Virus record (IMG/VR): IMGVR_UViG_2609459852_000009
Origin: a virus
Lineage: Duplodnaviria > Heunggongvirae > Uroviricota > Caudoviricetes
Reading direction: 5' to 3' (one strand)
Length of the DNA stretch: 14,095 bases
The stretch's first letter is position 1, and each line of letters begins with the position of its first letter. Made by a program: the position numbers and the translations under genes. Below the pieces are notes generated by a model, which made no database searches, was not told the origin of the DNA, and saw nothing but the letters and a program-made list of their open reading frames with translations. This document shows positions 3,742 to 11,261 of this stretch, piece by piece.

Positions 3742-4005
3742 TTATTCTTCTGCAAAAGCTGAAAAGCCTGCTTTTATTCCGATCTCTTTCAGTGCCTGTA
3801 ATGAAGTGACAAACTCACCTTCGCGCAAGATAAATCCGTCTGTCACTCGACCATCCACAAAATTAATTAACGCAGCCCCATTCTTTCGCAAACACATAAT
3901 GCGGTAATGACTAACAAGATTTCCATTTTCAACGCACACAGCATAGAGGCCATCTTCACAAAAATTTTTACGCAGTTCTTCGATGTTCATCATCATGTTC
4001 ATCAT
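3742..4005 (-). CDS. Hypothetical small protein with Met-rich N-terminus
   Basis: 87-aa ORF starting MMNMMMN; GGAAGGA Shine-Dalgarno about 7 nt upstream of the first ATG. Confidence 0.6.
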   Translation of the reverse strand: MMNMMMNIEELRKNFCEDGLYAVCVENGNLVSHYRIMCLRKNGAALINFVDGRVTDGFILREGEFVTSLQALKEIGIKAGFSAFAEE

Positions 4006-4221: not shown

Positions 4222-4377
4222 TTACTCCTCAGGTTCGTAAGCTGTGAAGACAGCGACCTCCGTCTGGCCGGTTCGGATTCGTACCTCGCAAAGGTCTTTC
4301 CTCGTTACCAGTGCCGTCACTATGACGGTTAAACAGATGACGATCAGGGCGATTAACATCGCCTTTTGCTGCTTCAT
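4222..4377 (-). CDS. hokD: Hok-family type I toxin (HokD/RelF-like membrane peptide)
   Basis: Internal ATG at 4375-4377 with AAGGAG upstream gives MKQQKAMLIALIVICLTVIVTALVTRKDLCEVRIRTGQTEVAVFTAYEPEE, which I recognise as Hok family. The 70-aa track ORF is an in-frame upstream extension. Confidence 0.85.
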   Translation of the reverse strand: MKQQKAMLIALIVICLTVIVTALVTRKDLCEVRIRTGQTEVAVFTAYEPEE

Positions 4378-4555
4378 AGCCTGCTTCTCCTTGCCTTTCG
4401 GCACGTAAGAGGCTAACCTACATGTGTCTAGCATGAAATTGGCCTCAGATTAATGTTAAGCGTCTTGCAGGACGCGTAATGTTAACTGGGGCTTTTCTCT
4501 ATCTGCCGTTGGTGTTCATGCCCGAGGCAGATAGCCTCAAGCACCCGCAGCCATT
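4378..4555 (-). promoter_or_regulatory. hok mRNA 5' leader with conserved stem-loop (possible mok/sok regulatory region)
   Basis: Minus-strand GCTTGAGGCTATCTGCCTC (plus 4524-4542) forms a GAGGC/GCCTC hairpin and resembles the conserved 5' element of hok mRNAs as I recall them. Exact sok and mok boundaries are not resolved. Confidence 0.45.
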
Positions 4556-5186: not shown

Positions 5187-5474
5187 TTGAATTTGAATCG
5201 CGAGCTTTCTAATGGAAAGATCACTCAGGCTGATTATTGTCTATACAAAAAACTGTTTGAAGACTACATTCAGGTATTAACATTTCAACACACAAGAATT
5301 TTTGTGGAAAAAGATTTAATAGAACTATCAAATCATCGAAGTGGAGTATTCATTACAACTCAGCATGATACATTAGTAAATAGACTTGACAAAATTGATT
5401 ATGAAATTGACAGATTAAAAAACTGTTTAAATAAAAAAATTATCGATTACACAAAATTCACATCCCTATATTAG
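5187..5474 (+). CDS. Questionable small ORF (95 aa), TTG start only
   Basis: No ATG in frame and no clear Shine-Dalgarno; AT-rich; convergent with the 484-aa gene. Confidence 0.25.
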   Translation: MNLNRELSNGKITQADYCLYKKLFEDYIQVLTFQHTRIFVEKDLIELSNHRSGVFITTQHDTLVNRLDKIDYEIDRLKNCLNKKIIDYTKFTSLY

Positions 5475-5565
5475 GATTTTCTAAGAGTACGACACCGTCA
5501 CATTTAAATATTATTTGTAGAGGTAAAATGACAGCCTGACGGCGGTATTTCATTGCGAAATGCTA

Positions 5566-8860: not shown

Positions 8861-9362
8861 AATTCCATCCAGCTTTTTGTTGGTATTGCTGTCGATACGC
8901 AAGCTTGAAAGCAATTGCTTTTTCTATAAGTTCGTCAGTTTCACGATCTACAACGGCAGGATCTGCAAAAAGCAGTCCAGATTCCACCACATCGCCATAT
9001 TCTTTATTTAACCCGGCGATCATGTACGTAATACTTTTTCCATCACTGATCTCACGATACAACCTGAAATCACTAATCCGGATAGCCTCCATAATTGCAG
9101 GCACTAGCGCTGTGAACTTTTCACGCTTATCCCTGGTGTCGATAGCCTTCCAGCGTTCGAATATCTTCACTCGATTAACGCTAAGCGCTCGCTGATCAAC
9201 CGCGCCACCTTCATATGTGACACGCTGAACATCGATGTTCGGGCGCTCTTTCAAAGCCCAGAATGCTTCAGTGATTAATATCGTCGCCTGCTCCTGTGTC
9301 ATTCCTGGTCGACATATCCAGGCATCCAGAGCCTCACGAGCCTGTTCAGGAGTGATTTTCAT
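8841..9362 (-). CDS. YdaT-like protein in the cII position
   Basis: 173-aa ORF with ATG at 9360-9362. Overlaps the dicC stop by 17 nt and the O-like start by 20 nt. Conserved-looking KIFERW and ALVPAI segments recall YdaT-family proteins (memory only). Confidence 0.7.
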   Translation of the reverse strand: MKITPEQAREALDAWICRPGMTQEQATILITEAFWALKERPNIDVQRVTYEGGAVDQRALSVNRVKIFERWKAIDTRDKREKFTALVPAIMEAIRISDFRLYREISDGKSITYMIAGLNKEYGDVVESGLLFADPAVVDRETDELIEKAIAFKLAYRQQYQQKAGWNYESSFC

Positions 9363-9573
9363 TGTTCAACCGCCCCGCCCGCTTCGTCTTACGATATTCG
9401 TCATAAACTTTGGGATCATACTGAAGCTCCCCGCCAGATGCCTCCTGTAGACGCATCGCGCGACCTTCAGGAACCAGTATCCCCCAAGCAGCAACACTTG
9501 CCAGTCTCACTCCTGCGGCATTGGCAAGCTTTGTTTTGCTGCCAAAAAAAGTAATTGCGTCAACTTTAAGCAT
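9346..9573 (-). CDS. dicC: DicC-like Cro-type regulator
   Basis: 75 aa from the ATG at 9571-9573; HTH-like GSKTKLANAAGVRLASV; divergent from dicA across an operator-bearing 80-bp spacer; recognised as DicC. Confidence 0.85.
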   Translation of the reverse strand: MLKVDAITFFGSKTKLANAAGVRLASVAAWGILVPEGRAMRLQEASGGELQYDPKVYDEYRKTKRAGRLNNENHS

Positions 9574-9586
9574 CAAAGCCCCCTCT

Positions 9587-9604
9587 TGTTAGATTTTTCT
9601 AACA
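9587..9604. promoter_or_regulatory. Palindromic operator TGTTAGA-N4-TCTAACA in the dicC-dicA intergenic region
   Basis: Perfect 7-bp inverted arms separated by TTTT; the same consensus recurs downstream of dicA. Confidence 0.6.
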
Positions 9605-9653
9605 TTATTGTGCGCGGGATACCTAAGTCAAGAAAAATTAGAATTACCTAACT

Positions 9654-10061
9654 ATGGATACAAGAACCCTAGGCCAGCGAGTTCTGGCGCGACGAAAAGA
9701 ATTACGCTTAACACAACGAGAAGCTGCGCGCCTCGCTGGAGTTGCTCACGTCACAATTTCACAATGGGAAAGAGACGAAACCCAGCCAGTCGGAAAACGA
9801 TTGTTTGCTTTAGCGGATGCTCTGAAGTGCTCACCTACATGGCTAATGTTTGGTGACGAAGACAAGGCACCAGTGCCTGCACAAGAACTTCATGTGGAAA
9901 CAGAGCTAACTCCCAACCACAAAGAATTGATCGAATTATTCGATGCTCTTCCATCTTCCGAGCAGGAAGCCTTGCTGTCTGAAATGCGCGCAAGAGTAGA
10001 AAACTTCAACAAACTCTTCGAAGAAATGCTTAAAGCGCGTAAAAATAAATCAATAAAATAA
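9654..10061 (+). CDS. dicA: DicA-like Xre-family HTH repressor (cI analogue)
   Basis: 135-aa ORF; HTH LTQREAARLAGVAHVTISQWE; divergent partner dicC; followed by ydfA, dicF and dicB. Confidence 0.9.
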   Translation: MDTRTLGQRVLARRKELRLTQREAARLAGVAHVTISQWERDETQPVGKRLFALADALKCSPTWLMFGDEDKAPVPAQELHVETELTPNHKELIELFDALPSSEQEALLSEMRARVENFNKLFEEMLKARKNKSIK

Positions 10062-10096
10062 CATTCTTTTCAAGTGATTAGTTGCGCCCACTCTTT

Positions 10097-10116
10097 TTGT
10101 TAGACCAATCTAACAA
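10097..10116. promoter_or_regulatory. Second palindromic operator TTGTTAGA-N4-TCTAACAA upstream of the ydfA-dicB operon
   Basis: Perfect 8-bp inverted arms with CCAA spacer; a weaker half-site-like copy lies at about 10134-10150. Confidence 0.55.
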
Positions 10117-10229
10117 AAAACACTTGCCTCTCATGTTAGGTTATTCTAAATTACTTTCTATCAAGACACCGCACGGTGTTCTCAGCAAGCAGTTCCGCTA
10201 CCCCGGCGTTAAGGGGAAATGAGGTCAGC

Positions 10230-10382
10230 ATGGATACTATCGATCTTGGCAACAGCGAATCTCTGGTATGTGGCGTGTTCCCCAACCAAGACGGTACGTT
10301 CACCGCGATGACATATACCAAAAGCAAAACGTTTAAAACCGAATCTGGCGCGCGTTGCTGGTTAGCCAGAAACACTGACTGA
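10230..10382 (+). CDS. ydfA: YdfA-like small prophage protein
   Basis: Internal ATG at 10230 with AAGGGG upstream gives a 50-aa protein MDTIDLGNSESLVCGVFPNQDGTFTAMTYTKSKTFKTESGARCWLARNTD, recognised as YdfA-like. Confidence 0.8.
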   Translation: MDTIDLGNSESLVCGVFPNQDGTFTAMTYTKSKTFKTESGARCWLARNTD

Positions 10383-10759
10383 TGAGGCTGACGATGGAAT
10401 TTAAAGATTTACCGTCTGATGTACAGAAAACAGCAGCTCATACATTGCATTCTGTGCTGCGAGAAATCGGGAAAGATATTGCAAGCGAGCCAGCAAAAGA
10501 TCTGGCCCGGAAAATCAAGACCGCTTTCGTTGAGCTTTATAATGTTGGCACTGACTCTGAAACTGTCGAGACCAAGACCGTAAGTTCACCAATATTCTCA
10601 CTTGAGCCAGGCGTATTATCAGGTGAAATATGCACCGAGATTTCCAGCGAACTGCTTCCGGTAATACGAGAAGCAATTTGCCGTCGCGGTTTGGATGGAA
10701 GTTACGATCATGACGTCCTGCAAGTTCTCAGGACTATGGTGACTTCACTGGGGATTTGA
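10382..10759 (+). CDS. Hypothetical protein (125 aa; alternative start at 10394 gives 121 aa)
   Basis: ATG at 10382 overlaps the ydfA stop; the ATG at 10394 has GAGG 7 nt upstream. Occupies the ydfB/ydfC position of the dicB operon. Confidence 0.6.
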   Translation: MRLTMEFKDLPSDVQKTAAHTLHSVLREIGKDIASEPAKDLARKIKTAFVELYNVGTDSETVETKTVSSPIFSLEPGVLSGEICTEISSELLPVIREAICRRGLDGSYDHDVLQVLRTMVTSLGI

Positions 10760-11203: not shown

Positions 11204-11261
11204 TTTCTGGTGACGTTTGGCGGTATCAGTTTTACTCCGTGACTGCTCTGCCGCCGTTTTT
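11204..11261 (+). ncRNA. dicF: DicF small regulatory RNA (ftsZ-targeting sRNA) with terminator
   Basis: TTTCTGGTGACGTTTGGCGGTATCAGTTTTACTCCGTGACTGCTCTGCCGCC followed by GTTTTT matches DicF as I remember it; terminal GGCGG...CCGCC hairpin plus U-run; located just upstream of dicB. Confidence 0.8.

Follow-up and report, generated by a model that had tools for sequence, protein, structure and literature searches.

Two palindromes bracket the repressor gene dicA in the stretch of DNA analysed here (14,095 nucleotides, below called the window), and they are very probably operators of a P22-like immunity switch on a Qin-type prophage. They would almost certainly be sites at which DicA binds and keeps cell-division-inhibitor genes silent. 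The Cro-like regulator DicC most probably uses the same operators as DicA, as in lambda and P22.

The window is the immunity region of a Qin-type prophage of Escherichia coli. Several E. coli chromosomes, that of EC93 among them, carry a prophage region with 100% identity to it, and annotations of the EC93 locus were transferred by adding 299 to the locus coordinate. The annotated order in EC93 is rem, hokD, several other genes, a ydaT-like gene and a dicC-like gene on one strand, and an HTH repressor gene, DUF1391 (ydfA), dicB, ydfD, an exonuclease gene, xis and int on the other. The prophage is inserted next to rspB-ynfA, as is Qin. The following genes of the window are referred to in the text.

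3742-3993, minus strand: rem, antirepressor homologue (RefSeq annotation of the identical EC93 locus)
4372-4546: sok (Rfam)
9346-9573, minus strand: dicC, 75-aa Cro-like regulator, divergent from dicA (P22_Cro, E 4.9e-12; RefSeq annotation)
9654-10061, plus strand: dicA, 135-aa repressor with a Cro/C1-type HTH (HTH_3, E 1.5e-14; 57% identity to K-12 DicA)
10230-10382, plus strand: ydfA (DUF1391), first gene of the dicB operon (domain search and EC93 annotation)
11205-11256, plus strand: DicF small RNA, inside the operon controlled by the promoter dicBp (Rfam RF00039, 72.5 bits)

The labels dicA, dicC and ydfA had already been used in a preliminary description of this DNA, and they are borne out by homology to K-12 and by domain matches. 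DicC of the window is 86% identical to its K-12 counterpart. Because of the gene order, the insertion site and the identities of DicA and DicC to the K-12 proteins (57% and 86%), we regard the locus as a non-K-12 allele of the Qin dicA-dicC module. The recognition helix of DicA reads AHVTISQWER here versus SHVSVSQWER in K-12, and a sequence search identified the N-terminal domain of P22 C2 as the closest solved structure (E 1e-18). A Pfam search gave no Peptidase_S24 match in the 135-aa DicA. The K-12 protein likewise has no RecA-cleavable domain, and in that strain Rem acts as an antirepressor relieving DicA repression (PMC10448788).

Four sites sharing a common core flank dicA.

9586-9605: left strong putative operator, the homologue of K-12 Oc; 20-mer TTGTTAGATTTTTCTAACAT, exact match; 18-bp core at 9587-9604, built as 7+4+7
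9636-9653: weak "Oa-like" site; AATTAGAATTACCTAACT, core TTAG-N6-CTAA (repeat finder and core-motif search)
10097-10116: right strong putative operator O1; 20-mer TTGTTAGACCAATCTAACAA, exact match; 18-bp core at 10098-10115
10134-10151: right weaker putative operator O2; TGTTAGGTTATTCTAAAT (mismatch-tolerant search)

In the raw sequence and by pattern search, positions 9587-9604 read TGTTAGA-TTTT-TCTAACA and positions 10098-10115 read TGTTAGA-CCAA-TCTAACA. The arms of the two 18-mers are the same, so that 14 of the 18 bases are shared and every difference falls within the central 4 bp. The 20-mer of O1 (10097-10116) is composed as TTGTTAGA-CCAA-TCTAACAA, and according to the repeat finder its perfectly complementary arms measure 11 nt (10094-10104 and 10109-10119). 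O2 has three mismatches to TGTTAGA-N4-TCTAACA and two to TGTTAG-N6-CTAACA. The Oa-like site, which the repeat finder places at 9635-9652 with 89% complementarity to 10135-10152, ends at 9653 and directly adjoins the dicA ATG. The preliminary description had recognised the two near-identical palindromes, which are exact matches with identical arms at 9587-9604 and 10097-10116. It had also recognised a weaker related site at about 10134-10150, which we find at 10134-10151 with its three mismatches. Its inventory overlooked the fourth core-motif site at 9636-9653.

The motif search across the window that had been proposed there returned two perfect matches to TGTTAGA-N4-TCTAACA, at 9587 and 10098, and two matches with three mismatches, at 10134-10151 and 5469-5486. 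About 0.6 matches per window with up to three mismatches are expected by chance. For the shorter core TTAG-N6-CTAA, the 14-kb window has five occurrences versus 0.2 expected, a number reached in 0 of 200 shuffles. Four of these five cores flank dicA, only two on either side, and the fifth is at 5469-5486. Could such palindromes simply have arisen by chance in AT-rich intergenic DNA? Single exact 20-mer motifs do so in low-GC viral contigs. The paired exact pattern, however, was found in 0 of 200 shuffles, its positions are fixed across genera, and the two flanks of dicA co-vary (described below), which leaves a chance origin with a negligible probability. On the basis of permutations, shuffles and haplotype conservation it was refuted.

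The viral contigs of IMG/VR illustrate the same distinction between single and paired motifs. The paired exact motif with a gap of 480-510 nt was found in 94 viral contigs, and in 91 of them a DicA-like ORF is located between the two sites. The single motif TTGTTAG-N6-CTAACAA is much less specific: among the viral matches listed, 30 of 107 have a DicA-like gene at most 900 nt away, and the remaining sites, again among the matches listed, are on contigs of approximately 36% GC.

Polymorphism among close relatives fits a recognition of the arms. Loci were ascertained by the DicA protein and not by the motif. In 73 of them DicA is at least 90% identical to that of the window, and these 73 loci represent 18 upstream and 39 downstream haplotypes. 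Within this set, no haplotype departs from the core GTTAG/CTAAC. The arms show just two changes, each seen once and at an outermost base (A9604G and T10098C), and we read the apparent variation at 10115 as a gap placed by the aligner in an A run. Variability in the intergenic regions peaks at the central bases, with 0.20 per column per haplotype compared to a background of 0.04 upstream and 0.07 downstream, thus about 3-5 times higher. O2 has only two singleton variants in the 39 downstream haplotypes, and the Oa-like site has no variable column in the 18 upstream ones.

P22 C2 binds 18-bp operators whose central 4 bp are uncontacted (PMC4267663). The invariant arms and variable centre in the window agree with this geometry, when natural variation is taken as a proxy for contacts. 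By this analogy, a DicA dimer would read an 18-bp site consisting of a 7-bp arm, 4 uncontacted bp and a second 7-bp arm, TGTTAG(A)-N4-(T)CTAACA.

A role in RNA rather than DNA has also been considered for O1, as a hairpin that terminates or stabilises the dicA transcript. O1 lies 36 nt 3' of the dicA stop and can form an 11-bp hairpin of -10.2 kcal/mol (z = -6.6), and the terminator scan found no alternative terminator between dicA and dicBp. The scan also finds nothing at O1 itself, however, and the stem is A/U-rich and followed by A-rich sequence instead of a U tract; a role as terminator was rejected on these three grounds. Furthermore, identical arms are present in front of dicA, at a place that needs no terminator, and the loop bases change freely, whereas the arms keep one sequence and show no compensatory substitutions. 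We consider it most unlikely that O1 functions as an RNA hairpin. In the ydfA leader, RNAalifold gave no convincing consensus structure for a conserved hairpin-like element.

In more distant relatives, the palindromes vary together with the recognition helix of the repressor. A protein-based search with one genome per species yielded 21 loci (numbered L), and 13 diverged immunity types were compared. In loci with the recognition helix HV(T/S)(I/V)SQWE, found in Escherichia, Citrobacter and Rahnella, the same four-site layout recurs. The first site is strong and precedes the matched dicA start by 62-82 nt (by 67-68 nt in Escherichia), and the next, a weak one, immediately adjoins the ATG. Downstream, a site that may be strong or degenerate follows the stop of dicA at a distance of 37-60 nt, and the last comes 35-36 bp beyond it. 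Lineages with other recognition helices have different palindromes at the equivalent positions.

Helix S(H/Y)A(T/S)ISLWES, L010 and L015: palindrome of the TTGTTGAG type
Helix SGSSISLWES / SDSSISLWES, L012, L013 and L019: palindrome TTGAGTTTTCTCAA
Helix SSVSVFKWE, L014 and L017: palindrome TAACTTTTGTTA
Helix SHVTIFKWEN, L018 and L020: palindrome of the CTTAAC type

In L007 the HVTISQWE helix is retained, the preceding helix is different, and the palindrome is CCTTAGG-TTTT-CCTAAG. The sequence of O2 varies with immunity type too, being TGAGAAAACT in L012 and L019 and CCTTAGG in L007, and the Oa-like site shows little co-variation. The best 16-mer match across the two flanks of dicA has a mean of 13.6 within the own locus versus 11.7 with other loci, and 0 of 20000 permutations gave a match as high as that within the own locus (13 immunity types). 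Upstream and downstream sites should match in this way if both flanks are read with a single specificity, shared by the repressor and its Cro partner.

These data also bear on the identity of the protein that mainly occupies the sites, which could be DicC alone or the host regulator YjdC, with only an indirect role for DicA. In support of this alternative, DicC gives ChIP-seq peaks on both sides of K-12 dicA, with the palindromic motif TT(A/C/T)G...C(G/A/T)AA (PMC11430063), and YjdC has been reported bound at the dicC operator region (PMC9283627). Moreover, the gel shift of a 90-bp K-12 fragment was obtained with a DicA-containing crude extract (PMC3441716). On the other hand, Oc used as operator in vivo needs dicA in order to repress a reporter, and repression is restored by a DicA plasmid (PMC3441716). 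The tracking of the DicA recognition helix by the operator type across lineages, and the agreement of the 7+4+7 geometry with the P22 C2 homologue, likewise argue for DicA, and we judge another main binder to be very improbable, although DicC or YjdC may take the place of DicA at individual sites.

The half-site of the window operators is one for which DicA-dependent repression is documented in K-12. K-12 Oc, TTGTTAGTCATAACTAACAA at L001:566-585, has a half-site identical to that of the window, and it is the sole perfect match to TTGTTAG-N6-CTAACAA in the MG1655 locus (L001). The left site of the window (9586-9605) differs from the K-12 Oc pattern by one outer base as a 20-mer and matches it exactly as an 18-mer. 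The K-12 locus is known from Bejar et al. (1986 and 1988), Yun et al. (2012; PMC3441716) and Ragunathan et al. (2023; PMC10448788), the original description of the dicA operators reportedly being that of 1986. A single A-to-C change at position 16 of Oc abolishes repression, and cloning of the region at high copy number selects for point mutations in Oc (PMC3441716). Operators have been placed in both the dicA-dicC and the dicA-dicBp regions of K-12 (PMC10448788), and that paper relays from earlier work that there are three operators on each side of dicA. The Reg-Seq paper gives the DicA site for dicB in K-12 as "location unknown" (PMC7567609), and DicA and DicC are absent from the main text of a compendium paper (PMC12059191).

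The two loci share the gene order dicC, dicA, ydfA, dicF, dicB and the operator half-site TTGTTAG/CTAACAA. In both, 511 bp separate the starts of the strong upstream and the downstream site, and the strong site is 67 nt before the dicA ATG here and 68 nt before it in the K-12-type locus L009. The predicted promoter layout is alike, and a rem gene is present in the window locus. The loci differ in DicA, which is only 57% identical, and in O1, which is a perfect palindrome here whereas its K-12 counterpart, ATGTTAGCTATAGCATACAA at L001:1077-1096, has three mismatches. The K-12 counterpart of O2 (L001:1112-1131) has a perfect left half. Om and Oa, two sites near K-12 Oc that were predicted from sequence, showed no DicA binding in vivo (PMC3441716). 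In the window, nothing corresponding to Om is present in the spacer of the predicted dicC promoter. The Oa-like site at 9636-9653 is the positional homologue of K-12 Oa, and its status as an operator is uncertain since K-12 Oa did not bind DicA in vivo. Overall, our interpretation agrees with the published picture of the orthologous locus, because the half-site is the same as in K-12 Oc and operators are known at both promoters (PMC3441716, PMC10448788). The control of dicC and of the dicB operon by DicA, as assumed in the preliminary description, matches this literature.

How the sites would act depends on their position relative to the promoters, all of which are consensus predictions for this allele.

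9604-9631, minus strand: predicted dicC promoter (dicCp); -35 TTGACT (9631-9626), 16-nt spacer, -10 AATAAT (9609-9604)
9616-9644, plus strand: candidate dicA promoter; weak -35 GGGATA (9616-9621), 17-nt spacer, -10 TAGAAT (9639-9644)
10123-10151, plus strand: predicted dicB-operon promoter (dicBp); -35 TTGCCT (10123-10128), 17-nt spacer, -10 TAAATT (10146-10151)

The predicted dicC promoter was found by a generic scan and matches the consensus at 10 of 12 positions; its layout recurs in 11 of 14 representative loci. Its -10 abuts the left operator, so that the predicted dicC start (about 9597) lies inside the operator. Bound DicA would exclude RNA polymerase from dicC, since the left site overlaps the edge of the predicted -10 and the start.

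The -35 of the predicted dicC promoter falls within the span of the candidate dicA promoter. Its -10 is located 9 nt before the ATG and inside the Oa-like site. Hexamers of this kind (TAGAAT, TAAGAT or TATATT), 6-9 nt before the ATG, rank first or second among the scored candidates in 11 of 14 loci. By eye, the K-12-type locus has TAGCAT at the position of the dicA -10. No Shine-Dalgarno sequence is visible upstream of dicA in the window. This arrangement suggests that the dicA mRNA may be near-leaderless, with a predicted start at about 9651-9654, and that its promoter may interfere with dicCp. These two features would agree with the observation, reported for K-12, that DicA at Oc "activates" its own gene (PMC3441716).

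The predicted dicBp was not reported by the generic promoter scan and emerges from the comparative scan only. The pattern TTGnnn-17-TAnnnT is kept at this position in the window and in L004, L005, L007, L009 (K-12 type), L010, L012, L015, L016 and L017; L019 has TGGACA. Relative to the predicted start near 10158, O1 is centred near -51 and O2 near -15. O1 ends approximately 6 nt upstream of the predicted -35 and is outside the core promoter. O2 covers the predicted spacer and -10, with the -10 hexamer TAAATT as its right half. A -10 hexamer requires T as its final base, which would explain why the right half of O2 deviates from CTAACA.

This layout has to be weighed against the simplest form of the switch, in which one DicA dimer occupies each perfect palindrome, O1 alone represses dicBp and the weaker sites are irrelevant. 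No other site matches nearly as well as the perfect palindromes, and in K-12 Oc alone bound DicA in vivo, not Om or Oa (PMC3441716). Yet in the window it is O2 that lies over the spacer and -10 while O1 stops short of the -35. O2 is nearly invariant among close relatives and, unlike a mere -10 hexamer, changes with immunity type. In K-12 the position of O1 is the degenerate one, with three mismatches, and the left half of O2 is perfect. We therefore find it improbable that the two perfect palindromes suffice. The two-operator switch of the preliminary description thus stands as far as the sites are operators, with a half-site equal to K-12 Oc and flanks that co-vary; it falls short in number, since each strong palindrome has a weaker, conserved companion. 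The switch would have at least three sites, perhaps four, because the weaker right site covers the dicBp spacer and -10 and the right palindrome is upstream of the -35. The Oa-like site may be mainly a promoter element, or a site preferred by DicC.

For the operators of the P22-like switch we propose the following mode of action. DicA at the left site would free, or directly help, the weak, overlapping and near-leaderless dicA promoter. Repression of the dicB operon most likely requires occupancy of O2, which we consider the actual site of RNA polymerase occlusion, because O2 lies over the spacer and -10 and O1 upstream of the -35. O1 would be a high-affinity anchor acting through cooperative binding, the centres of O1 and O2 being 36 bp apart, and it may additionally block read-through from dicA. 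How O1 and O2 would share the task, their cooperativity, the promoter positions and the leaderless dicA mRNA are what we infer from this arrangement. The spacing of 35-36 bp (approximately 3.4 helical turns) speaks against the proposed mode of action, as it gives no obvious same-face arrangement of O1 and O2. O1 alone is also poorly placed for simple occlusion.

A two-tier device with four sites can be suggested as a tentative and rather less likely elaboration. The Oc homologue and O1 would be the anchors, and the degenerate sites would double as -10 elements and hence as the control points, with O2 as the -10 of dicBp and the Oa-like site as that of dicA. DicA would occupy the degenerate sites cooperatively, or DicC would do so by preference. 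O1 would form a roadblock halting read-through from dicA into the toxic dicF-dicB operon.

The reading as a P22-like immunity switch is consistent with what is known of related systems. In the c2/Cro system of P22 (PDB 2R1J, 3JXB), the N-terminal domain of C2 is the closest solved relative of the DicA N-terminal domain, and DicC matches P22_Cro. The half-site of P22 differs in sequence from that of the DicA operators, the 135-aa DicA is without the Peptidase_S24 or RecA-cleavable domain, and each promoter region here has two sites rather than three.

The arrangement also resembles OR and OL of lambda. In both, a repressor gene and a divergent cro gene have an operator region in common, and a second operator cluster downstream of the repressor controls a co-directional promoter, the early-left promoter in lambda. 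The lambda cI mRNA made from PRM is leaderless, and the predicted dicA mRNA would be leaderless-like in the same way. Bistability is a further likeness: K-12 DicA represses dicBp in a bistable system in which DicC is the Cro analogue (PMC10448788). In contrast to the tripartite operators of lambda (OR1-3, OL1-3), there are two sites per side here, and the candidate promoter of dicA shares sequence with that of dicC, whereas the lambda promoters lie side by side. Lambda is induced by RecA cleavage, whereas induction of the Qin type in K-12 is by the antirepressor Rem, heat or urea (PMC10448788). By mode of induction only, DicA can be likened to the Gifsy-type repressors GfoR/GfhR, which are also short, non-cleavable and displaced by a prophage antirepressor (PMC10448788).

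The DicA/DicC switch was already known from K-12 Qin, and so were, in kind, the operators at dicCp and dicBp. Our contribution is modest: it consists of the exact sites in this allele, a number of at least three, the perfect right palindrome upstream of the -35, the support from co-variation and polymorphism, and a dicA mRNA that is likely leaderless. This allele would be a cleaner substrate for footprinting than K-12, since a perfect palindrome lies beside dicBp and co-variation pinpoints the likely sites. The exact location of the repressor would explain how cryptic prophages stay in check, and how the switch is flipped by heat, urea or the antirepressor Rem.

A Shine-Dalgarno sequence for the repressor gene dicA was not found in window positions 9616-9656. 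Upstream of the dicA ATG, at a distance of 6-9 nt, lies a TAGAAT-like hexamer that is kept in most lineages. The conservation of this hexamer so close to the start codon suggests that the dicA mRNA is near-leaderless. The mRNA of lambda cI made from PRM is likewise leaderless, and the predicted dicA transcript would resemble it in this respect. The candidate dicA promoter is interleaved with the -35 element of the predicted promoter of dicC, the divergent Cro-like gene.

At the other end of the gene, a terminator scan did not detect an intrinsic terminator between the dicA stop codon and the predicted dicB-operon promoter dicBp (10062-10122). This promoter is co-directional with dicA, and transcription running past the dicA stop would reach the toxic operon if nothing halted it; repressor bound at O1/O2 is one example of such a block. 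Unlike the window, locus L007, which represents another immunity type, carries a GC-rich hairpin immediately downstream of the dicA stop codon. A further element is found in the leader of ydfA, the first gene of the operon:

10166-10183, short palindrome or hairpin with the core ACACCGCACGGTGT at 10168-10181, about 10-25 nt downstream of the predicted dicBp start.

In the locus comparison ACACCGCACGGTGT is kept in K-12, in the non-K-12 allele of the window and in L012, and the variants GTAACCACACGCAGTGATTAC and ATCACCGCACAGTGAT are present in other immunity types; some of the flanking changes are apparently compensatory. In its placement it is reminiscent of a nut/boxB-like element or of a site for protein binding. 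No convincing consensus structure came out of RNAalifold, and an Rfam scan returned no gathering-level match at 10166-10183.

Two features lie further away from dicA:

4372-4546, sok antitoxin RNA (Rfam, 115 bits), adjoining hokD.
5469-5486, fifth copy of the operator core TTAG-N6-CTAA, TATTAGGATTTTCTAAGA, from a motif search of the window.

Together, sok and hokD form the hok/sok module known from Qin-type prophages. The fifth core copy is located in an AT-rich stretch that has no gene annotation and is bounded by the hokD/sok region on one side and a 484-aa ORF of the dicC-side operon on the other. This copy may have arisen by chance or may be an additional DicA/DicC site.

Three of the compared dicA loci (L008, L012 and L013) are of enterobacterial type and come from metagenome-assembled genomes that bear the labels Collinsella, Bacillota and Veillonella parvula; the operators of L008 are K-12-like. 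Probably, prophage contigs of E. coli contaminated these genomes during binning. In L021, L022 and L023, from the E. coli/Shigella chromosomes ECGI0523, ECMA0423 and SFBU0723, dicA is interrupted by many small indels and the operators are damaged too, a pattern more suggestive of faulty sequencing or assembly than of genuine pseudogenes.

Comparison with phage records revealed that functional phages (mEp460_ev081, HannyBb, PhiR42_1 and PPompW/Stx2a phages) match window 9300-10450 partially and in two pieces. Such a pattern indicates that the immunity module is swapped mosaically between active lambdoid phages and Qin-type prophages.
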